Part shown: piece after piece, positions 1,991 to 20,000 of the stretch | How the letters are laid out: each line of letters starts with the position of its first letter | Position numbering within the stretch: position 1 is the first letter of the stretch | Source of the DNA: Catajapyx aquilonaris | Lineage: Eukaryota | Direction: 5' to 3' | Length of the DNA stretch: 20,000 nt | NCBI GenBank assembly: GCA_000934665.2 | Contig: KZ538496.1 | Span: 46,143 to 66,142 of the forward strand | The notes under the pieces: model-generated | The model's database searches: none | The model's input: only the letters and a program-made list of their open reading frames with translations | Told to the model about the DNA's origin: nothing | Program-made: the position numbers and the translations under genes

Positions 1991-2176
1991 CTGACCAGTT
2001 CGCCGACCACGCCATCAGAGAGAGAAAGGCCGGATGTGACGTCACTTCAACCGTTACTCCCCGTTTACATCTGCTAGGCCACCACTCACATTGGGCCAAT
2101 CAGAAAGCAGGAAGCCACATGACGCATGCGTGTATAATTCACGCCAACTGGCGCGTGTAAACTATGCCGGAAGTGT
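1991..2176 (-). promoter_or_regulatory. TyrRS promoter and probable short first exon
   Basis: TOP/TCT-like tract CCTTTCTCTCTCT (2029-2017), donor CAG|GTTCGT at 1991/1990, CRE palindrome TGACGTCA (2037-2044), CCAAT box near 2096 and ETS-like CCGGAAGT near 2167. Most of these are retained in the copy at 5441-5876. Confidence 0.6.
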
Positions 2177-2875
2177 CACCCGGCGTAATCTATTTACTCA
2201 CAGTTTAATATGAAGCTTTTAATTTAGATGCAAATTAAATTTTAAAGTATTTTGCAACCATCTTTGAAACTTATTAAAGAGAATCGCTATTATTGGCAGG
2301 ATTGTGGCCAAAGATTGTGGCGCGAATTCAAATGTCTGCAAATGGGGTTGAAATTCCTCTAGTCACAAAATGGCTTCGTTCTGCACTACCCAATTATTAT
2401 TATTAATTATTATTATTCGCAATACGCAGAAGCGGCGCCCACAGCATGTGCTGGTCAGGTATGAAACGCCTTCCAATATTGAAACCAATGTTTCAACTAT
2501 TGAAATTGGAGAATTCAGAACGGACGTTGGTTGTCACTGGAATAAACGTGAAAGGTTTGGAACACAAGCACTCTCAGGTTCGGTTGTTTACTTTTTTAAT
2601 GATCTCTCTCTCTCTCTCATCTCTCCCTCCCGCCTGGATACATGTTGATTTTTCAGACGGAGGTTGAGGCAGCAGCGGCTGCTTTGGCAACAAGGCGCTG
2701 GTCCCTCTCCTCTGCGACGGTCAGCTTGATACCCTTGCCCTTTGGCAGGGATACGTACGCCTTCGTGCCCTTTCCAATCATGAAAATGTAGTTTTACCTG
2801 GAATCGGAAAGGAAGACACGCATTATTAACCCAAGTGTAAACAATGCTAGTGTCCAACACTGAGTATGGCAAAAA

Positions 2876-3017
2876 GTATGTCCTCGCTGTGGGTAATGCT
2901 GATTCGACACTTAATAATCCAGACCAGCGACCTTTCAGAGAGAGTTACTATGCCCACCTTTTTGACCGCCCGTACACAGGAAATTTAACATAACAGGCGG
3001 CTTCGATCAGGGGCATG
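2876..3017 (-). ncRNA. H/ACA snoRNA, SNORA16-like (copy in the RPS4 pseudogene intron)
   Basis: Near-identical to 9689-9830. Both pocket strands, the H box and the ACA box are intact; the differences lie in the apical loop region. Confidence 0.82.
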
Positions 3018-3413
3018 CTTTCAGAATAACAGGTACAAACGTACCTGGTGGCAAACACATTTCCATTTGTGTCCTTGACGTGCACGATGTCAAAGGACCC
3101 CAGATGTCTCTCCCTGGACACGACTGTGCCCACTCGCCCCAAGTTGCGCCCTCCAGTGATCATGCAGAGGTTCCCCGTCTCAAACTTGATGAAGTCCAGG
3201 ATCTTCCCTGTGCCAATGTCCATCTGGATGGAGTCGTTGGCCTTGATCAGGGGATCGGGATAGCGGATGGTACGGCCATCATGGGTCACCAGGTACGGGA
3301 CAGCCTTGGGGCCCAACTGCGCACGCAGGACACGACACAGCTTGTACTGCAACCAAACAACGCGTTAAAAAATGGCCAAAAAATCCAATCGCAGATTTCA
3401 CGGAGCTAAGAAA

Positions 3414-3490
3414 TCCTCTCAGCATCTGCCTCATTCTTTCGTCAATTAATAATCAGGTCAAGCGTCTATTACATTTTACATCCTTGAGGA
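3414..3490 (-). ncRNA. Box C/D snoRNA (copy of the RPS4 intron 2 snoRNA)
   Basis: Near-identical to 10227-10303. GACGCTTGAC-CTGA and ATGAGGCAGATG-CTGA are retained, with a TCCTC/GAGGA stem; the C box is degenerate. Confidence 0.65.
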
Positions 3491-3798
3491 TTGCGCGACA
3501 AGATTTGTTAATAATTAAATTGTTATAATCACCTTGTCCTCTTCTGGCATGATCTGATGTATGATGAACCTTGGTGTCGTAAATGAGCCGAAAGTCGCCG
3601 GTGTTGTCGATGGTGATTACATCCATGAATCCGGACAGATAGTTGGGATCCATTTGTGCCTTCCCATCCTCCATTATTAGAAGCTGCATCACTATCAAAA
3701 TAATGATCCCTCCAAACAATATGGTCACCTGGAACGGAACCTCTGTTGCATCAGTTACATGCTGCCACTTGTTAACATTTCAAAATTTATCGGTATGT

Positions 3799-3863
3799 CC
3801 CACTCAGTAAACTTAATCATCACACTCTAAATGCAGAGAGGGCAAGTTTGTCATCATTGTGGG
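3799..3863 (-). ncRNA. Box C/D snoRNA, SNORD103/85-like copy
   Basis: Copy of 1036-1100 with C, C' and D boxes, guide AACTTGCCCTC and CCCAC/GTGGG stem intact. Confidence 0.8.
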
Positions 3864-4455
3864 AACATTTCAAAGCAAATAAATCTCTAACCTCACACCC
3901 CGCTCTCAACAGGTCGCCAATTTTGGTCATGGGCACAAAGAACGCAATGTGCGCCTTCCCACACTTTCTTCTTTGGGTTGAGCACCGCGTCTGGTGAGCC
4001 TGTTTCGTACCCATCGACGTACACTCTGTCCCCTGCGATGCTCTCGCTTGGAAGGTCAAGTGGCGCCAGGGCTCAAGGGCTGCCGGCTGATGCGCACAAC
4101 ACCATTACTTTCGACTCGACCCCTTTGAGTTTCGCAGGGTTCAGGTTGCACAGGACCACAACCAGGCGGTTCTGCATCTCCTCAAGCGGCACAAATGATG
4201 TTGTCACTGAATCATTAGGAACTCATCATTTTTATCAAATGTTGCACTAGCTACATTACATATTTGACAAAAGCAACTATCAAGTTACCTAAATCAATAG
4301 ATTCTATGTACAGGATGTTTCTTCACATCGACGACTTTCCCAATGCGGATGTCCAGTTTGTGTGGCGCAATCACGTCATCCTCCTCTGCAATGAAAATGA
4401 TCGCAATCAGAACAAGTTTGTGCGAACTAAATTCATTACATGAATAAGCAAATTT

Positions 4456-4516
4456 CCATTCAGATAGTTATATTAGTCATTAATATTCTGTGAGGGCAAG
4501 TTTGATCATCATTATC
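4456..4516 (-). ncRNA. Box C/D snoRNA, diverged paralogue with the same 18S guide
   Basis: Minus strand reads ATGATGA-TC-AAACTTGCCCTCA-CAGA (D')...ATGACTA (C')...CTGA, 70 nt upstream of the EMAP II exon acceptor at 4386. The terminal stem is weak. Confidence 0.72.
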
Positions 4517-4817
4517 TCCACACTCAATCTCCAAGCGCTGTGCAGGACAGAGACAGAGGCAGACACCCAGTTGCAAGCATGACTACCGGTGTCAACCTAT
4601 GCATTACTGTGCAAGAGATATTTGCCAAACTTGTAGTTCTGCACAGCACCCAGAGCCCGTGCATGACCTTCCAGACGTCGACTCCTCCCACCAATCTGCA
4701 AACATTCTCTAGCCCTTCCGAAAAATTCAATGGCACTGCCATTCCTCACAAACCCGTGAATATTCTACCCATTAATTAACCTGCGCCATTTACTCCTATC
4801 CATAGAAACAACCTTAG

Positions 4818-4876
4818 CCTCAGCCACGTCCATGGTCCTACTGACACATGAACGTTAAGTTCGATCATCATCAAGG
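4818..4876 (-). ncRNA. Candidate box C/D snoRNA (orphan)
   Basis: Minus strand reads CCTTG-ATGATGA...CCATGGACGTGG-CTGA-GG, downstream of a GTAAGT donor at 4929. The stem is short and no target was recognised. Confidence 0.42.
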
Positions 4877-5079
4877 AAAATCTCATCGCTTCATGTTCGA
4901 GAATCAAATTCAATGAAATTATGACTTACGTTTCTCCCAACTCCAGCAGTTCCCACGGCGCTTTCATATTGTCCAAGTAAGCGTGCAGGTCCGCAAACAA
5001 TATGGTCACCTGGAACGGAACCTCTGTTGCATCAGTTACATGCTGCCACTTGTTAACATTTCAAAATTTATCGGTATGC

Positions 5080-5144
5080 CCCACTCAGTAAACTTAATCA
5101 TCACGCTCTAAATACAGAGAGGGCAAGTTTATCATCATTGTGGG
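5080..5144 (-). ncRNA. Box C/D snoRNA, SNORD103/85-like copy
   Basis: Identical by eye to 1036-1100. Confidence 0.83.
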
Positions 5145-5351
5145 CACATTTCAGAGCAAACAAATCCCTAACCTCACACCCCAAAATTTCCTGCAAGTTG
5201 CGTCTCACCAGCTGCTGCTTCTCCCAACTCGGGCCGTCGGGGACCCCAACAAGATTCGCCGCCATGTTCACAATCTGCAAATAAACATGCTGACGAATCA
5301 CAAATTTTCAGAAGCAAGACCACGCATCTTGTTAAAGTCGCAGTTCAGTGT

Positions 5352-5433
5352 CCCCTCAGAGTCTGGTTCATTAATTATTTTTTACGTTTTCGCTTTCTTC
5401 ACTTGATGTAAGTACAGACGATCATCACCGGGG
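5352..5433 (-). ncRNA. Box C/D snoRNA, copy of 1443-1520
   Basis: Same boxes, guide and CCCC/GGGG stem, with a 4-nt insertion in the AT-rich middle. Confidence 0.75.
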
Positions 5434-5440
5434 TTGCGTT

Positions 5441-5876
5441 AGGCAGAAGCCCCATGAAGCAGCCTCTATATTCCGGCCCCCCAAATCCCCCGAAGAAAAG
5501 AAGGAAAAACGAAACAAACCTGACCACGCGGCCATCGAAAGAGAAAGAGACCGGGCGGATGTGACGTCACTTCAAGTCTTCAACCGTTACTCCCCGTTTA
5601 CATCTGCTAGGCCACCACTCACATTCGGCCAATCAGAACGCAGGATATTACATGACGCATGCGTGTATGATTCAGGCCAACTGGTGCGTGTAAACCATGC
5701 CGGAAGCGTCATCTATTTACTGCAATTGCTTGTATTTACTGACAGTTTAAACGGTTTAAACCTTTACTTTGATATAAATTAATTTTTGGAAGTATTTTCA
5801 AACATTCTTTGGACTTATGGAACAGGATTGAACAGGTCGGCAGGGATGCGGCGCCAATTCAAATATGAAATTCCTC
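5441..5876 (-). promoter_or_regulatory. Duplicate of the TyrRS promoter and first exon
   Basis: Aligns to about 1927-2358. Keeps the TCTCTTTCTCTTTC tract (5550-5537), CAG|GTTTGT donor, TGACGTCA, CCAAT and CCGGAAG. Confidence 0.75.
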
Positions 5877-6136
5877 AATTGATCGCTCATGAACTTGCAA
5901 CATTTTCAACCATGGTTTTTGTAGGCTAGGCTCTGGCTATATAATATTCTTCCTCGAATTATTATGCAACAATAACACACAATATAGCGATGGGGACCCC
6001 CCCCCCCCAAAGATATCTCCTAAAGGAAAAGTGAAGCCAGGTTCTACCGGCCGCCATCTTTGCTTTGGGCGACTCGGATCGATGGTGCCCCATCTGCACA
6101 GGGGCCGCCCCTAATTCTGCTGCCCACTGTTCCATC

Positions 6137-9100
6137 ATGCCGCAGCACTGCTCTGCAGATGGGTGCAAATCGAGGGCCGACAAGGGCGGCTCGGGAATAT
6201 CCTTTCACAGGTGAAGCAAAACGCAGCGCAGCGCCGTACACAGCACTTAACGACAATGAATTTTTAACATTGCAGTTACCCCTTGAAGAATCCAGAGTTG
6301 CTCGCCAAATGGATGAACAACCTGCGTCGGGTGAATTTCACGCCATCAATTCACAGCAAACTGTGCAGCCTGCACTTCACACACGACAGCTACCAGAAAA
6401 GACCAGGTGCTAATATACCACTCTTGAAGAAGGATGCTGTACCGACAGTATTCATCTCTCAGCAGCACCTGCGAGAGAAAGTGCCCTCACGGAAACCACC
6501 ACCACCAAAGAGGAGATGCGCCAGTGACAGTTCTCAGCCTACAGCGAAGGTAACGCATATTGTGTGTACGACAATATGCCATTATGGGTAATCCACATGA
6601 AATGTGTGAGCATTGTCATGACAAATGTTACTACTCCATGTCACATTGGAATCCATTGTTCTTGCATGCATCTCTTTTTTTGCACAAAATGATGCCCACT
6701 GCCCACAGGAAATGTTACTGCCTACATAATAGCGTAGTGACCTGTGACTGGTCAACCATCAAATGATGTCTCAAGTTGTTATTAAAGTTCATTGATTGAT
6801 TATTTCTCAGAGGATGAAAAGCGATGGACTTGCCAAGAACACGCTGACAGCTGATACATCTGGAAATAATAGTCGTCACATCCATGCAGCTGGAAACCCC
6901 ACGGAACCCATTATTACTTCATCACCAACGAAGAAGAAATTGCCCCAGAAGATGCTTCAACAGAATCTGCGGCGCCGACCAACCAAGATCAACAAGATGA
7001 AGGATCTCCTCGAGTCATTAAGGAGAAAAAACTTGATTGGGGAGGTGGCAGAGAGTCTTCTGGCCGAGTCTTTTTCTGGATTGCAGCTGCTTAATAAGGA
7101 TCCCATTAAGAACGACTCCGCCAGCAGCCCAAATGGGTACAGGTATTCAAAGGAAGTGAAAAGATTTTCCATGACTTTGTATTACCAGTCTCCGAAGGCA
7201 TACAGGTTCGCGCGGTCTCACTTTAGGTTGCCACATGTCTCCCTGCTTCAGAAATGGTGCTCTAATGTAGAAGCAGAACCAGGGTTCTTAACTGATGCTT
7301 TCAACTACTTGCAAAAAAAAACCAGTGAGCAACCGTGGCTGGCTGACTGCGGTTTGGTGCTTGGCAGTATGTCAATTAGGAAATGCATGGAGTACAATTC
7401 AGCTACAAAAAGCTATGCTGGATATGTAGATTACGGTGGAGCTATAGCGGAAGCATGTGAAACTCTAGCTTCGGAAGTCTTGGTGTTTATGGTGGTATCA
7501 CTTGTCGGCAAATTTAAATTTCCAGTTGCATACTTCCTTACGGACAAAGTTGCAGGAAACGTGCAGTGTCAGCTTATCCGAGTTTGCCTGGAGAAACTGG
7601 ATAATGTTGGAATTAGGGTATGGACACTTACATTAGATGGGTGTGCCTCTAGTGTTCGTACAGTCCAGGAACTAGGTGTGAATTTCACCGGTGACGTCCC
7701 CAAACTGACCACACACTTCTTGCATCCTACTAGACAGTATGAGGTCTACGTAATTTTCGATCCTTGCCACATGCTGAAACTGGCAAGGAACAGCCTCGCA
7801 GATTTAAAGGTATTGCAGTCGCTAAAGGGCACAATATCATGGAATTATGTTGCGAAACTGCATGAATTGCAGGAAAAGGAAGTGGGCAATAAGCTGTCCC
7901 GAAATCATGTACAAAAATTGAAAGTGTGCGTGGCCGCTCAAACACTGAGTGGCTCAGTGGCCTCTGCGCTTCATTTTTTGAGAGATGGACTGAAGCTTAA
8001 GGAGTTCATGGGGTCAGAAGCAACATGTGAGTTCATGGAGATGCTGGACAAGATATTTGATTTGTGTAATTCAAAGAATCCATTTGCAAAGGGCTACAAG
8101 GCTGCTTTACGACTATCCAATCAACATGTTTGGCTGGCAACTGTCTCTCAAGCCGAAAAGTACCTCACGTCCTTGCAAATTGTCATGGAGTCGGGTCGAG
8201 CACACCCCATTATTCTTCATAGACGCAAGACTTTTGTGATTGGTTTTCTGCTTACCTTGAAATCATTGAAGTCCGTTGCAATGCACTTTCTCACTAGAGA
8301 GGTCAATCCACTGAATTACGTCATAACATATCGTTTCTCGCAAGATCACTTAGAAATGCATTTTGCAAAAATCCGAGGATGGAACAATAACCCTAGCTCT
8401 CTTCAGGTGAAACGGTTGCTTTGCCATGTACAAGCTTCTTCAACAGGCAATTGCAGGATGCCTAATGATTTGCCTGACCCTGCAGACATATTTGAGTTTA
8501 GGTCATCAAAGAGATCGCTGAGGGACCTATCAAATGAAGAGGATACCTGCAGAGAGAGAGAATCTTGTGTGGCAGAATTACTAGATTCCTGTGCCCTGTC
8601 AGAGTTCACAGAAAACGTATTGTATTACATTGGTGGTTTCATAGTGCGCCGTTTAATGAAAACCATCACATGTCAACCTTGCATGGAGGGTCTTGTCGCC
8701 AGTCCAGTTGGAGACCATAATTATTCCTTCGCTGGGCCAATGAGCGTGTTTACAGACATGGACAACAATGGGGGTTTAATAAAACCATCCGCAGCTGCGT
8801 TCACTGTTGTCAAAGCATGTGAACGTGCTTTCCGTGTGGTAATGTTTGGTGAGGATTTCTCGCAAATTAAAAAAAAAAGTTTTGCAAGTGTTCTTGTGCA
8901 TAGTGTTTTCCGCCGAGTGTGCCATTTGCCACTGTTTCAAGGAGGTACTGCACATGACTTATACGAGTGTGAAATTTTTGATGAGAGGCACTCTTTTCAA
9001 GTGATCAAGAAAATTGCAGAGTGCTACTTTTCGCTCAGACTGAAAACCTATGCAAAGAATTTCACTACTGAGAACTTCCATATTGGTGTGCGCCAGAAGC

Positions 9101-9141
9101 TTATGAAACGTATTTTATTTTGCCACGAATCAACAAAGTGA
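6137..9141 (+). CDS. THAP-domain P-element-family transposase (THAP9-like), about 892 aa; exons 6137-6210, 6276-6549, 6811-9141
   Basis: Spliced N-terminus MPQHCSADGC...SFHSYPLKNPELLAKW...LCSLHF...LKKDAVPTVF is a C2CH THAP zinc finger. It is followed by SPKAY..R..LP, EPGF, LTLDG, DPCHMLKLARN, SQDHLE, WNNNP, YYIGGF and GGLIKPS motifs. Both GT-AG introns keep the frame. Confidence 0.93.
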
Positions 9142-9477
9142 CCTAACATGCAAAGGCTGAGGTGGCGTTTGTACAGTAGTGTCGGTATGGGTTGTAATGT
9201 TGACTTTCTTATTTTGTATATCTTGCACTATAATTCTTGTTTTACTTTCAACATGTAGCATTGTAATGTGTTATTATGAAGGTTTCCTTGAGAAAATACA
9301 CTTGTATGGAAAGGGATAGCGAGTTATGCATCTTACGTGCTGTCATCAGTGCCCTGTGGCTGAATGCCACTGGAATAAATGGGAAAGGTTTGGAACGCAA
9401 GAACTCTCATGTTCGGTTGTTTACTTTTTTTAATGATCTCTCTCTCTCTCCCTCCCGCCTGGATACATGTTGATTTT

Positions 9478-11101
9478 TCAGACGGACGTTGAGGCAGCAG
9501 CGGCTGCTTTGGCAGCAAGGCGCTGGTCCCTTTCCTCTGCGATGGTCAGCTTGATACCCTTGCCCTTTGGCAGGGATACGTACGCCTTCGTGCCCTTTCC
9601 AATCATGAAAATGTAGTTTTGCCTGGAATCGGAAAAGAAGACACGCATTATTAACCCAAGTGTAAACAACGCTAGTGTCCAACACTGAGTATGTCCTCGC
9701 TGTGGGTAATGCTGATTCGACACTTAATAATCCAGACCAGCGACCTTTCAGAGAGAGTTACTATGCCCACCTTTTTGACCGCCCGTACGCAGGTAATTTA
9801 ACATAACAGGCGGCTTCGATCAGGGGCATGCTTTCAGAATAACAGGTGCAAACGTACCTGGTGGCAAACACATTTCCATTTGTGTCCTTGACGTGCACGA
9901 TGTCAAAGGACCCCGGATGTCTCTCCCTGGACACGACTGTGCCCACTCGCCCCAAGTTGCGCCCTCCAGTGATCATGCAGAGGTTCCCGGTCTCAAACTT
10001 GATGAAGTCCAGGATCTTCCCTGTGCCAATGTCCATCTGGATGGAGTCGTTGGCCTTGATCAGGGGATCGGGGTAGCGGATGGTACGGCCATCATGGGTC
10101 ACCAGGTACGGGACAGCCTTGGGGCCCAACTGCGCACGCAGGACACGACACAGCTTGTACTGCAACCAAACAAGGTGTTAAAAAATGGCCAAAAAATCAA
10201 ACCACAAATTTCACGGAGTTAAGAAATCCTCTCAGAATCTGCCTCATTCTTTCGTCAATGAATAATCAGGTCAAGCGTCTATTACATTCTACATCCTTGA
10301 GGATCGCACGACAAGATTTGTTAATAATTAATTTCTTATAGTCACCTTCGCCTCTTCTGGAGTGATCCGATGCACGATGAACCTCCCCTTGGTGTCGTAA
10401 ATGAGCCGAAAGTGCTCTCCGGTCTTGTCAATGGTGATCACATCCATGAATCCGGATGGATAGTTGGGATCCGTTCGCACCTTCCCGTCCACCTTTATTA
10501 GACGCTGCATCACTATTTTTTTAACCTCCGCCGCAGTCAGTGCGTACTTCAGCCGGTTCCGAAGAAAGATGATTAGCGGCAGGCATTCCCTCAGCTTGTG
10601 GGGGCCTGAGCTAGGCCGAGGTGCGAACACCCCGGCCAGCTTCCCCAACATCCAGTGCTTCGGCGCATGGATACGCTTCAAGTGTTTACGCGGTCCGCGA
10701 ACCTGTAAAAATTAATAACACATAAGTAAACATGTCCCACTTGCTGCAACGGACTGTGTCCGCCCCAGAAAATTCCTCTCAGAATCTGCCTCATGCTATC
10801 TTCACTTGTAAAAATCAGGTCAAGCGTCATGATCATTCATCACTGAGGATCTGTACACACAATTAATTGCACTAATTGGCCCCCCCTAAAATTTGGAACA
10901 TATCGGGAATAATTCGAACACTTTTTTTCCCCCACATTGATTTTCAGGCTGCTCTCAACCAACACCGGTTCGACCAGTACCGTTTTTCATCCGGAATTTT
11001 TCCCGGGACAATCCGGACACCTGGATGAACCGGGGATGGCCGATCCGGTGGCGGATAAGCCCGGATTTTATGTTGAAAAGGGAAGAAAAAGGACTCACCA
11101 T
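9478..11101 (-). CDS. RPS4: 40S ribosomal protein S4 (eS4), 268 aa; exons 11101-11099 (ATG only), 10702-10346, 10159-9858, 9622-9478
   Basis: [20 protein letters not shown]...[11 protein letters not shown]...[12 protein letters not shown]...GGRNLGRVG...[14 protein letters not shown], with canonical splice sites and no stops. Confidence 0.97.
9689..9830 (-). ncRNA. H/ACA snoRNA, SNORA16 (ACA16)/yeast snR46-like, in RPS4 intron 3
   Basis: Hairpin 1 ATGCCC..ATCGAAG-CCGCCTGT...ACGGGCGG-TCAAAAAG..GGGCAT, H box ATAGTA, hairpin 2 TCGCTG...CAGCGA, then ACA plus 3 nt. The pocket pairs with conserved 28S CUUUUUGA-UC-CUUCGAU. Confidence 0.9.
10227..10303 (-). ncRNA. Box C/D snoRNA in RPS4 intron 2 (paralogue of the intron 1 snoRNA; degenerate C box)
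   Basis: TCCTC-AAGGATGT...GACGCTTGAC-CTGA...TTGACGA...ATGAGGCAGATT-CTGA-GAGGA, 67 nt from the acceptor. Confidence 0.72.
10774..10849 (-). ncRNA. Box C/D snoRNA in RPS4 intron 1, probably dual-guide (D guide SNORD90-like)
   Basis: TCCTC-A-GTGATGA (C)...GACGCTTGAC-CTGA (D')...GTGAAGA (C')...ATGAGGCAGATT-CTGA (D)-GAGGA, 71 nt from the acceptor. Confidence 0.88.
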
Positions 11102-16269: not shown

Positions 16270-16862
16270 TCACTCGTAAAAAAAAACTTTGAGCGAAAAT
16301 GTCACTCGAAAATATATTCTAAAAACTTTTGAGTCGAAATCTCACTCTAAAAATGTTGATTGAAAATCTCACTAAATTTTTATTGTCGCTCTCGAAAATA
16401 TTTTGAGTGAAAATCTCGCTCTAAAATGTTGAGTGATAATCTCGCTCTAAACATTTTTGAGTGAAAATCTCTCTCTAAATATTTTGAGGGAAAATATCGC
16501 TCTAAAATGTTGATTGAAAATCTCACTAAATTTTTTATTATCTCTCTCGAAAATATTTTGAGTGAAAATCTCGCTCTAAAAATGTTGAGTGAAAATCTCG
16601 CTCTAAACATTTTTGAGTGAAAATCTCGCTCTAAATATTTTGAGTTAAAAATCTCTCGAAACATTTTAAGTGAATAATCTCACTCTAAAATGTTGAGTTA
16701 AAAATCACTCGAAACATTGGTTTTAAGTGAATAATCTCACTCTAAAAATGTTGAGTGAAAATCTTGCTCTGAAATATTTTGAGTGAAAATCTCGCTCTAA
16801 ACATTTTTGAGTGAAAATATCACTCGAAACATTTTTAAGTGAATAATCTCACTCTAAAAATG
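16270..16862. repeat. Tandem array of about 26-bp imperfectly palindromic units (TTTGAGTGAAAATCTCGCTCTAAAxAT) with a 154-bp higher-order duplication
   Basis: Roughly 20 visible units. The variant block GTTGATTGAAAATCTCACTAAATTTTTTATT recurs at 16355 and 16509. Confidence 0.92.
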
Positions 16863-17217
16863 AGAACTTACGCAAAATGTTACTTTTTGAGTGAATTTCA
16901 CTCCGCAAAGAGCTACTTGAACTCAAATCGAGTGAAAAAAATAGTCGAAAGAAGAGTGAAATTGAGTGGGGGGAGGAAACTGTTCTTTCAGTGAGTGATA
17001 CCGGTTTCACTCATTTTGAGTTGTTTTTTTTTCGCTCGAATGTGAAATGATCACTCAATTTTAGTGGAAATATGTCACTCAAGTGATGATCGAGTGATTT
17101 TCCACTCAATTTGAGCCGTAATCAATCCAGGTTAGAATCACACATTCAGTAAAAAAATCACTCAAATTGAGTGAAAAATTACTCTAAAGAAGAGTGAAAA
17201 TGAGCGGGGGGGGGGGG

Positions 17218-18297: not shown

Positions 18298-18832
18298 TAT
18301 ACCCAACGACAAAAGCGTCGTTTTTCGCGAGTTGCCCTCGATTTTATTCCAGCCCCCTTATATATTATTGTCCTCAATGCCGATTAGTGTTGTTCACAAA
18401 TCAAAGCGACAACTGGCCAGTGTTGTGTGGTCATAATGGATCTCCCCCTCCTCAACTTTTGTCCACCTCCTTACGCCAAAAGAATACATTAGTGCGTATA
18501 TCGGAAGCATATCGCCCTTTCCCCCCCATTATTTGATAGGAAAAAGGGGCTGACGTCAGATGAAAAATGGCTTCCTATTGGTCATGCGTCGTCGACTGAC
18601 CCCAACAATAGGGGGCTACAAATGGACCTGTGGGCCATAATTATATGACAAAAGTCTAACAATGGTCGCTGAAATAAATTACACAACATATACTCGATTT
18701 AGATAAATTCGTATAGAAATCGCATAGAATTGGCTAAGGACAAAGTCACGCCTATATCCAATCAATTACATATATGATTTGGTGTTGTCCTATAGTTTTT
18801 TTACGTAGCCTGATTGGGCTTTTTCCCTTTTA

Positions 18833-19044
18833 TTTTTACTCAAAACGAGTGGGGTTCAAATCAAGTGGAAGAACGAGTGGAAATCACTCAAAACGAGTGG
18901 AAAAATACTCGAAATTTGTTAGAGTGATAGAGGATAAAGTAGTGTCTTCTATCGCTCTAAAAATATTTAATGTATTTTTCCATTCGTTTTGAGTGACTTT
19001 CACTCTTCCACTTGATTTGAATCCCACTCGTTTGGAGTGAAAAA
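18833..19044. repeat. Imperfect palindrome with about 100-bp arms
   Basis: ACTCAAAACGAGTGGGGTTCAAATCAAGTGGAAGA...TTAGAGTGATAGAGGA is mirrored by TCTTCTATCGCTCTAA...TCTTCCACTTGATTTGAATCCCACTCGTTTGGAGT. Confidence 0.85.
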
Positions 19045-20000
19045 AAAATCACTCTATCTTCTAAGTTATTTTCACTCAGAATGAGTTATCATTTCATATT
19101 CACTGAAAGAGTTAGTCCCTCATTCTATATATTTTCACTCTTCTTTAATATTCCACTCGATTTGAGTTGAAGTAAATATTTGCATATAGGATATAGGAAA
19201 ATTCACTCAAAAATATAGCATTTTTCGAAATGGGGTCCTATAGCTTTGGTCTGGGATTTGGGAATTTGTATACACGAACAGCTTCACCATTTGCAGTCAT
19301 GTATAAACAAGCACTTTCAGCACCAATATGTCATTCCTATAGGTAAATTATCGCGGGTTTAAAAGTCACTCAAATTGGCTGGAAAAAAGGGGCGTGGTCT
19401 AGAGGGCGCATTCCGACTCCTGCCTATTCCGCGTGACGTCAGATGGCAATGCGATACCGTACAAGTAATAATGATCTTTGATAGATCCTAGCTAGAAAAC
19501 TAATACGTATTTCTTAGAACAAAAAAAAACAAAATTCATTTAAAAATAAGGACGATTTTTTAATACATATGTTTGCAAAATGTAGGCTATACATTGCTCA
19601 TTTTTTGAGTGAAATCTTCACAGTCGAAATTTTTAGAGACTTTTTTTTTTGTCGAAACCGAATTGGAGACAAACAGATTCATAACCTGTGTATAAGATGG
19701 AGTCAGTTTGAGAGGATTGACCTATTAGACTGCTGCGTTTTCTGATGGGATGCTAATAGAGCTGGTTCCTATATAAGAGGAGGTGATGGGGGATGGGGTG
19801 GAGGGGGGCAGGAACAAAGTAAAAGCGGGGAATTAGTTTTTCCCACGTGATCTTTTCCAGATTCTTACAGATTGATGAGAGCGACTCCCTGTGAGGGGAA
19901 CATTTGTAATTACATGGGAGGGGGTGGGGCAGAGTCCTCATTTCGCCCTCTGCTTGCCTCCTCTTTTATACTGAAACCTTCTTTTGCGATCAGAAAAGAG

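Follow-up and report, generated by a model that had tools for sequence, protein, structure and literature searches.

The window analyzed here is a stretch of 20,000 nucleotides (nt) of Catajapyx aquilonaris DNA, from contig KZ538496.1, numbered from its first letter. On the minus strand, flanked by the genes encoding tyrosyl-tRNA synthetase (TyrRS; <1–2333) and the ribosomal protein RPS4 (9365–~11000), it contains a unit made of pieces of both genes, which we term the chimera. We conclude from its sequence that it is probably, with a probability of about 0.62, a real chimeric pseudogene of the duplicated, non-processed type, with a structure that would allow it to host small nucleolar RNAs (snoRNAs). 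The homology to the two parental genes includes their introns, the reading frames carry disabling lesions, and the unit is present as real DNA. A first-pass annotation of this DNA had proposed a newborn snoRNA host gene that is retained for snoRNA dosage, and we therefore consider below both the architecture of the chimera and the manner in which its parts have diverged from their parents.

Structure of the chimera

The chimera was compared with its parents by self-BLAST and gapped alignments. It is a single minus-strand unit running from 5876 to 2532, and comprises in order a copy of the TyrRS promoter and exon 1, TyrRS fragments including EMAP II exons, and RPS4 exons 2' to 4. The segment 5470–5818 corresponds to the parental TyrRS promoter at 1943–2274 (78%), and a more sensitive search stretches the match to 5864/2333. 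Further TyrRS sequences are found at 5179–5440 (parent 1264–1527, 91%), 4939–5182 (parent 895–1138, 95%) and 3713–3961 (parent 950–1198, 91%), while 2532–3695 corresponds to RPS4 9365–10516 (92.8%). The earlier description of one same-strand unit leading from TyrRS into RPS4 is thus borne out by self-BLAST, gapped alignments and Pfam. At 3961/3962 an EMAP II exon runs directly into the tail of the start-codon exon of TyrRS, with TGGGAAG at the junction as a possible microhomology. The piece that is joined there, segment E, repeats this exon tail and adds to it the SNORD103 intron with copy E, followed by 17 nt from exon 3. The coordinates of all the features are collected in Table 1.

The core of the promoter copy has 11 substitutions in 128 positions and an insertion of 6–8 nt, while the distal part has 23 in 120 and many indels. 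Alignment with the parent indicates that one of two CCAAT-type motifs has been lost, at 5626. The pyrimidine tract of exon 1 is retained in the chimera, yet is altered by indels relative to the parent. The first-pass annotation had spoken of a TOP-like (terminal oligopyrimidine-like) promoter. There is indeed a promoter copy with a pyrimidine tract downstream, but the supposed TOP-like start is a mere pyrimidine tract.

The predicted chimeric gene has eight exons, all on the minus strand, and its seven donors and seven acceptors are consensus-like, with predicted joins at 5520|5274, 5173|5009, 4930|4385, 4289|4206, 3892|3728, 3533|3346 and 3045|2797. Splicing would generate an RNA of 1359 nt in which the first ATG opens an open reading frame (ORF) of 38 amino acids and the longest ORF has 128. 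The coding capacity of the chimera is gone. A deletion of 397 nt takes out a GST-like exon, with its junction at 5440, 7 nt short of the terminal stem (5433–5430) of the first snoRNA, sno1. An in-frame deletion of 129 nt covers the K-P-H-I-A-Y codons, and the parent has GGGG on either side of this segment. Parental positions 1–894, encoding most of the catalytic domain, have no counterpart in the chimera by self-BLAST. In the EMAP II domain the ORFs 4073–4222 and 3893–4072 adjoin in one frame at 4072/4073, separated by an in-frame TGA. Lastly, the RPS4 part has deletions of 3 nt and 5 nt in exon 2, and exon 4 opens with TAA as its first complete codon. The loss of the GST-like exon, the deletion edge 7 nt outside a snoRNA stem, the loss of the HIAY motif and of most of the catalytic domain, the TGA, and the RPS4 frameshift and stop had all been read from the sequence in the first pass; each is corroborated by comparison with the parent or, for the TGA, by the abutting ORFs.

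snoRNA copies within the introns

Six of the seven predicted introns hold one snoRNA each, placed 77, 69, ~70, 69, 65 and 79 nt upstream of intact acceptors. The six copies had been identified previously by their boxes and nearby acceptors, and weak sub-threshold Rfam matches coincide with them. No Rfam family matched anywhere in the window at gathering thresholds. The sub-threshold matches are consistent in parents and copies alike, scoring 31–37 bits versus a gathering threshold of 45 for SNORD103, 31 versus 35 for SNORA16 and 27 versus 43 for snoR53Y. Where the parent is within the window, as for five of the copies, the parental boxes are retained.

Potential guide sequences were compared with rRNA. 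Initial scans of six complete rDNA units, applying a 4-of-6 filter, found no target, and the SNORD103 target is present in only 3/6 of these units. We rescanned on a larger set of 101 eukaryotic rDNA loci taken from metagenome contigs via an 18S primer, of which six are complete units verified by Rfam and 18 reach the large-subunit rRNA (LSU). The 10-nt guide of SNORD103 type is present in all four copies, and its exact complement is found in 61/101 18S loci, where it precedes the primer site by 16 nt, a frequency far above that of shuffled controls. The SNORD103-like sequences have a C box, a D box, a terminal stem and an rRNA guide of at least 10 nt by D', with Rfam scores all under the gathering threshold of 45. 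Among them the divergent copy at 4456–4530 has a poor terminal stem, as read from its sequence, and a deviant D'. The copy at 5079–5145 (S103-C) differs from the parent at 1/67 positions (5079) and that in segment E (S103-E) at 4/67 (3864, 3850, 3833 and 3824), which leaves its box C, its box D and the 10-nt guide unchanged.

The sno1 copy has no substitutions in 76 positions compared with its parent, and one insertion of 4 nt located 13–16 nt upstream of box D. This snoRNA may be U33-like. The guide at box D matches 18S rRNA over 11–13 nt in 4/101 loci and over an 8-nt core in 28/101, with 0–14 matches for each of the shuffled controls, and is suggestive only. The D' side had no target that recurred consistently in the rRNA of the 101 loci.

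The copy of the box C/D snoRNA of RPS4 intron 2 has 3/80 substitutions (3476, 3447 and 3423), and its C box is off consensus at 2/7 positions in parent and copy. For the RPS4 C/D snoRNAs no consistent rRNA target was found in the 101 loci, 18 of them reaching the LSU, but scattered 8–9-mers only. The parental gene hosts two paralogous box C/D snoRNAs on the minus strand, in intron 1 (10771–10851) and intron 2 (10225–10304), that are 80% identical and share the same two guide elements. It is the intron-2 snoRNA that has the deviant C box, and a target was found for neither paralogue.

The SNORA16-like H/ACA copy has 2/137 substitutions (2981 and 2976), both apical in hairpin 1, and an insertion of 12 nt just past ACA+3. 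The two-hairpin fold, the H box and the ACA are retained, with a free energy of −44.4 kcal/mol compared with −47.9 kcal/mol in the parent.

The first-pass annotation had listed an additional box C/D candidate, at 4818–4885 on the minus strand. We reject this on the evidence of Rfam, a repeat edge and its spacing. It has no Rfam match at E ≤ 10, and it is split at 4855 by the edge of a high-copy repeat, where many contigs break; its D-box half (≤4855) lies within the repeat and its C-box half outside. Moreover its intron already contains another snoRNA, and the acceptor is ~430 nt away. The repeat itself, at 4571–4855, has a summed contig depth of 2100–7500 compared with ~33 (30–40) for unique sequence, that is roughly 60–230-fold, with loose ends at 4571, 4734, 4781 and 4855. 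A tRNA-derived short interspersed element was considered as its identity, and no tRNA-like part was found.

Divergence of the chimera from its parents

Copy and parent were compared by sequence class, using Fisher tests; the expectation for the snoRNAs assumes that only the parent is constrained while the copy drifts. Outside converted tracts the pseudo-exons differ at 32/406 positions (7.9%). Since the parental exons are constrained, this divergence has accumulated mostly in the lineage of the copy. Intron flanks differ at 44/348 positions (12.6%), in this case accumulated in both lineages. Taken together the exon and intron figures suggest a divergence of about 6.5–8% per lineage. The core of the promoter copy (8.6%, plus indels) shows no sign of constraint when compared with the pseudo-exons (p = 0.85).

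Three of the five testable snoRNA copies fit the local neutral expectation. S103-E has 4 substitutions where 4.6 are expected under drift, the RPS4 C/D copy has 3 versus 4.5, and the H/ACA copy has 2 versus 2.1, with flanks that are equally parent-like. The H/ACA copy lies in a block extending from RPS4 exon 3 into exon 4 that differs from the parent by just 1–3.5%. Because the adjoining exon 2 and intron 2 differ by ~10–13%, we regard this block as a conversion tract. Only sno1 and S103-C are significantly over-similar to their parents.

A three-way comparison of the SNORD103 regions is informative about the second of these. Over the upstream flank and the snoRNA, the parent (P) equals copy C at 103/104 sites, while C and E differ at 8/104. 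Over the downstream intron and exon stub it is C and E that are identical, at 85/85 sites, and P and C differ at 10/85. Both contrasts are significant (C–E, 8/104 versus 0/85, p = 0.009; P–C, 1/104 versus 10/85, p = 0.003). In addition, 37 nt upstream of S103-C that are not part of the snoRNA are identical to the parent, with a probability of about 0.01 if unconverted. The mosaic of P = C and C = E therefore points to gene conversion or recombination among the copies, and not to selection acting on S103-C. The identity tracts of sno1 and S103-C both begin exactly at a deletion junction. This would fit a parent-templated repair of breaks in which the deletion and the patch were made together.

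DNA contigs and transcripts

Support at the DNA level comes from contigs of four runs of one sample, which contain ~80% of the words of the stretch and are possibly the data from which the assembly was made; bridging was read from the 32/325 pieces listed. Contigs (unitigs) of three DNA runs bridge 2532, 3696–3712, 3961/3962 and 5864–5876, mostly with 0 other letters. The filler at 3696–3712 is spanned by the contig 3462–3742 in runs X1 and X3 (0 other letters) and by 3331–3742 in X2. Among the pieces listed there is no bridging contig for the junctions at 5440, 5182 and 4938. In run X1, unique and chimera-specific pieces have a contig depth of 29–40, and the RPS4 exon-3 tract, near-identical to the parent, reaches 60. 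Such values are consistent with a true second copy present at full dosage. Given single depth on the chimera-specific parts, approximately double depth on the near-identical RPS4 part, and the bridged boundaries, the chimera is not a misassembly.

No RNA data set is listed among those that contain the stretch. The RNA-like run X5 contains one spliced RPS4 mRNA contig, which has the parental letters at 2690, 2707, 2718, 3102, 3176 and 3260 and is uninformative on the copy. Among the pieces listed from this run there is no contig on chimera-specific sequence, so that it is uninformative for the chimera.

Origin of the chimera and alternative explanations

The arrangement suggests a complex local duplication of two neighboring housekeeping genes, TyrRS and RPS4, both of which host snoRNAs. 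Head-to-tail and on one strand, this would have placed the 5' part of TyrRS, two EMAP II exons, a second TyrRS piece running from exon 2 through the intron to exon 3, and the 3' part of RPS4. At least five novel junctions would be required, with possible microhomologies at GGGG and TGGGAAG and the 17-nt filler, and a later insertion of the repeat. The intronic snoRNAs would have been carried along as passengers, and the parents would then overwrite parts of the chimera by gene conversion. The snoRNA copies probably look intact because divergence is moderate (~6.5–8% per lineage) and because of gene conversion from the parents. We considered a single tandem duplication, and this is insufficient; 198 nt at 2334–2531 have no counterpart next to the full RPS4 gene or the promoter copy, and segment E and the EMAP II exons require extra junctions. 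Capture by the neighboring P-like element was also rejected, as this is without terminal inverted repeats and has unique depth.

The proposal that the chimera is instead a newborn non-coding host of the UHG/GAS5 type, selected for extra snoRNA dosage while its exons decay, draws on an architecture that is complete in the manner of such hosts, having well-spaced snoRNAs (65–79 nt from intact acceptors) in six of seven introns, no long ORF and a pyrimidine tract. A number of observations favor it over a pseudogene carrying passengers. All the boxes, the SNORD103-type guide with its widespread 18S complement, and the 14 splice dinucleotides survive. The four snoRNA copies of unconverted regions, when pooled, have 8/290 substitutions compared with 32/406 in the pseudo-exons (Fisher p = 0.0045), and sno1 plus S103-C alone have 1/143 (p = 0.0008). 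Both identity tracts stop 0–3 nt from the snoRNA 3' ends, as purifying selection predicts likewise, and a deletion halts 7 nt before sno1. Random placements in which both snoRNAs are missed and yet an edge lies within 10 nt of one make up 2% (permutation P = 0.02), in a post hoc test. It should also be borne in mind that the divergence tests leave out the snoRNA at 4456 and the EMAP II exons, about a third of the chimera, whose parents are off-window. Yet the promoter core drifts just as the pseudo-exons do and has lost a CCAAT-type motif, and two deletions would miss both snoRNAs in 23% of random placements (permutation P = 0.23). The pooled deficit of substitutions is driven by the two copies in conversion-like tracts; the other two have 7/147 (p = 0.26), and the H/ACA copy equals its flanks. 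The comparison of snoRNAs with exons and introns that the first-pass annotation had suggested as a check therefore gives a divided answer, with fewer substitutions in the pooled snoRNAs but three of the five copies at the neutral expectation and two in conversion tracts. Gene conversion is needed to account for the mosaic and for the identity of the non-snoRNA flank, and conversion end-points are expected in the best-conserved stretches, countering the argument from tract ends. Furthermore, the snoRNA families are already multi-copy in the parents, RPS4 having two C/D paralogues and TyrRS two or more of SNORD103 type. We thus consider selection for dosage unlikely. Slightly more doubtful still is its fuller form, of a multi-snoRNA host at birth that has shed its coding capacity and been kept by selection, helped by parental gene conversion, as an extra unit for six snoRNAs. 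Of the first-pass proposal the host-like architecture stands, and retention for dosage has no positive support; 'newborn' is relative, the unconverted parts being 8–13% from their parents. Nothing in the sequence speaks of maintenance by selection; what can be read there is youth and gene conversion.

Two further explanations have less to commend them. The promoter copy might survive as all or part of a bidirectional 5' region serving a THAP9-like gene that lies head-to-head with it, in which case any transcription of the chimera would be a by-product. The start of that gene is ~470–510 nt from the putative start of the chimera, on the opposite strand, and the gene has a spliced transcript in run X5 (0 other letters), has unique depth and intact domains, and is without transposon ends. 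On the other hand the promoter core is conserved no better than neutral sequence, a separation of ~0.5 kb is rather great for two genes sharing a core promoter, and contigs cannot show where the THAP9-like transcript starts. On balance we consider this improbable. An assembly artefact, in the form of a collapsed, mis-joined or haplotypic duplicate, is very improbable. It could draw on the origin of all the DNA support in one sample and on the three junctions lacking bridging contigs, but three runs have independent unitigs across four of the boundaries (0 other letters), chimera-specific depth equals that of the unique flanks while the shared tract has twice that value, and the unconverted parts lie 8–13% from the parents with many private indels, unlike allelic or collapsed copies.

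We therefore prefer the duplicated chimeric pseudogene. With consensus splice sites in seven introns, six of which have one well-spaced snoRNA, it would act as a non-coding multi-snoRNA host prone to nonsense-mediated decay (NMD) if the promoter copy fires. The odds that it still fires are roughly even.

Table 1. Positions of the component parts of the chimera in the window (−, minus strand;., no strand assigned).
Feature	Position	Strand	Remarks
TyrRS upstream region and core promoter copy	5578..5864 (core 5578–5711)	−	aligned to parent 2051–2330; head-to-head with THAP9-like gene
Putative exon 1, pyrimidine (TOP-like) tract and CAG|GT donor	5520..5549	−	transcription start inferred
sno1 copy, box C/D	5352..5433	−	parent 1443–1520; 4-bp terminal stem; weak Rfam matches only; 77 nt from acceptor
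TyrRS start-codon exon minus 129 nt	5173..5274	−	5/102 substitutions versus parent
SNORD103-like box C/D copy C	5079..5145	−	parent 1035–1101; Rfam SNORD103 30.9 bits versus gathering 45
TyrRS exon 3 stub (71 nt), 9 unrelated nt and GTAAGT donor	4930..5009	−	parent alignment
High-copy repeat in the long intron of the chimera	4571..4855	.	summed contig depth
Divergent SNORD103-like C/D, same 10-nt guide	4456..4530	−	Rfam SNORD103 18.7 bits, E = 0.85; parent off-window; ~70 nt from acceptor
EMAP II-domain exon, internal deletion and frameshift	4289..4385	−	by-eye reading versus expected protein; parent off-window
EMAP II exon (tRNA_bind), in-frame TGA	3892..4206	−	Pfam tRNA_bind E = 9e-12
SNORD103-like copy E	3798..3864	−	Rfam 37.4 bits
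17-nt filler, TyrRS-to-RPS4 junction	3696..3712	−	alignments
RPS4 exon 2, 3' part only, 3-nt and 5-nt deletions	3533..3695	−	21/162 substitutions
RPS4 intron 2 box C/D copy	3412..3491	−	parent 10225–10304; Rfam snoR53Y 27.1 bits versus gathering 43
RPS4 exon 3 copy, in near-identical (converted) tract	3045..3346	−	3/302 substitutions; contig depth ~2x
SNORA16-like H/ACA copy	2876..3017	−	parent 9689–9830; Rfam 30.9 bits versus gathering 35, pocket motifs aligned
RPS4 exon 4 copy, 3' untranslated region and flank; TAA first full codon	2532..2797	−	alignment

Parental genes and other features of the window

The window is animal-type eukaryotic DNA, in which the minus-strand order from high to low coordinates is RPS4 (~11000 to 9365), the chimera and TyrRS (2333 to <1). 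The parental RPS4 gene is complete, whereas the 5' two-thirds of parental TyrRS lie in the window. Pfam domains among the window proteins include tRNA-synt_1b, tRNA_bind (EMAP II) and RS4NT/S4/Ribosomal_S4e/KOW.

Parental TyrRS has an exon of 84 codons at 1825–1574 on the minus strand that is GST-C-like, and precedes the canonical start exon in the same frame. Its matches are the EF-1beta N-domain 5dqs_D (E = 6e-7), Arc1p_N_like (E = 2e-4, weaker than the Pfam cut-off) and Arc1p_N-like/GST_C clusters in a protein atlas. Such an exon of EF-1beta/Arc1p N-domain type would yield an N-terminally extended isoform of TyrRS.

The plus strand at 6023–9141 carries the gene resembling THAP9 and P-element transposases, which has a THAP zinc-finger exon pair and an open frame of 781 codons, and is oriented head-to-head with the promoter copy of the chimera. 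Its Pfam domains are THAP, Tnp_P_element, TNP-like RNaseH/GBD and THAP9_C. A GT..AG intron of 65 nt (6208–6272) is spliced in a contig of the RNA-like run X5, and the DNA depth is unique. Terminal inverted repeats were sought around 6023–9141 and none were found. This looks like a domesticated or single-copy transposase gene. Between it and the chimera, at 5997–6016, is a homopolymer, poly-G when read on the minus strand, at which the contigs from one DNA run conflict with the window at many adjacent positions; this part is probably uncertain in sequencing or assembly.

At the far end of the window an AT-rich array of ~27-nt tandem repeats, with related long inverted repeats (45-nt arms, 91% complementary), occupies 16284–16870, 18828–19048 and 19600–19639. 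The inverted repeats have weak matches to microRNA families, far under threshold, and have the look of a satellite or a miniature inverted-repeat transposable element (MITE).

Significance and comparison with known systems

The origin of non-coding snoRNA host genes is poorly documented. If the chimera were transcribed and spliced, yielding copy-specific snoRNAs, it would provide a concrete intermediate in which the exons are already junk while the introns are still productive. At present what we have is a complex duplication, well resolved, that shows gene conversion. Its value lies mainly in a warning for annotation, since pseudo-RPS4 and pseudo-TyrRS exons are found there along with five to six snoRNA loci that are redundant, and it is a candidate for a cheap expression test.

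In a full-text search of the literature, with supplements outside its scope, we found no report of a host gene that had arisen as a duplicated chimera of two coding hosts. The accessible parts of PMC11405852 and PMC5644071 have nothing on the origin of host genes by duplication. The generation of snoRNA paralogues by segmental duplication is documented in the accessible part of Hoeppner et al. 2009 (PMC2817437), citing Zemann 2006 and Nahkuri 2008. Like such paralogues, the snoRNA copies of the chimera come from duplication at the DNA level together with flanking intron. Unlike them, they stand in a unit that joins whole host introns and splice sites of two genes. The chimera differs too from snoRNA retroposons, reportedly described by Weber in 2006, in that its introns are retained; neither poly-A nor a target-site duplication was seen, although no search was made for them.

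Non-coding snoRNA hosts with a 5' TOP, namely UHG, GAS5, U17HG and the SNHG family, are said to go back to work by Tycowski et al. in 1996, Smith & Steitz in 1998 and Pelczar & Filipowicz in 1998. The chimera resembles UHG/GAS5-type hosts in having introns with one snoRNA each ~70 nt from the 3' splice site, exons without a meaningful ORF, a pyrimidine tract at the presumed start, and a predicted transcript that would be a target for NMD. It differs from them in being known from DNA alone, and in that its exons are recognizable, fresh fragments of two neighboring protein genes. Nor, when gene conversion is taken into account, can its snoRNAs be shown to be under stronger constraint than the remainder.

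The closest likeness is to the non-processed chimeric pseudogenes found at the junctions of segmental or tandem duplications. In common with these, the chimera has kept its introns, lies adjacent to its parents and consists of truncated same-strand fusions, with stops, frameshifts, junctions marked by microhomology or filler, and patchy gene conversion from the parents. It departs from most of them in that both parents are snoRNA hosts, so that six snoRNA-bearing introns have been inherited. With two such parents, the chimera has a plausible function at the RNA level that most pseudogenes of this kind lack.

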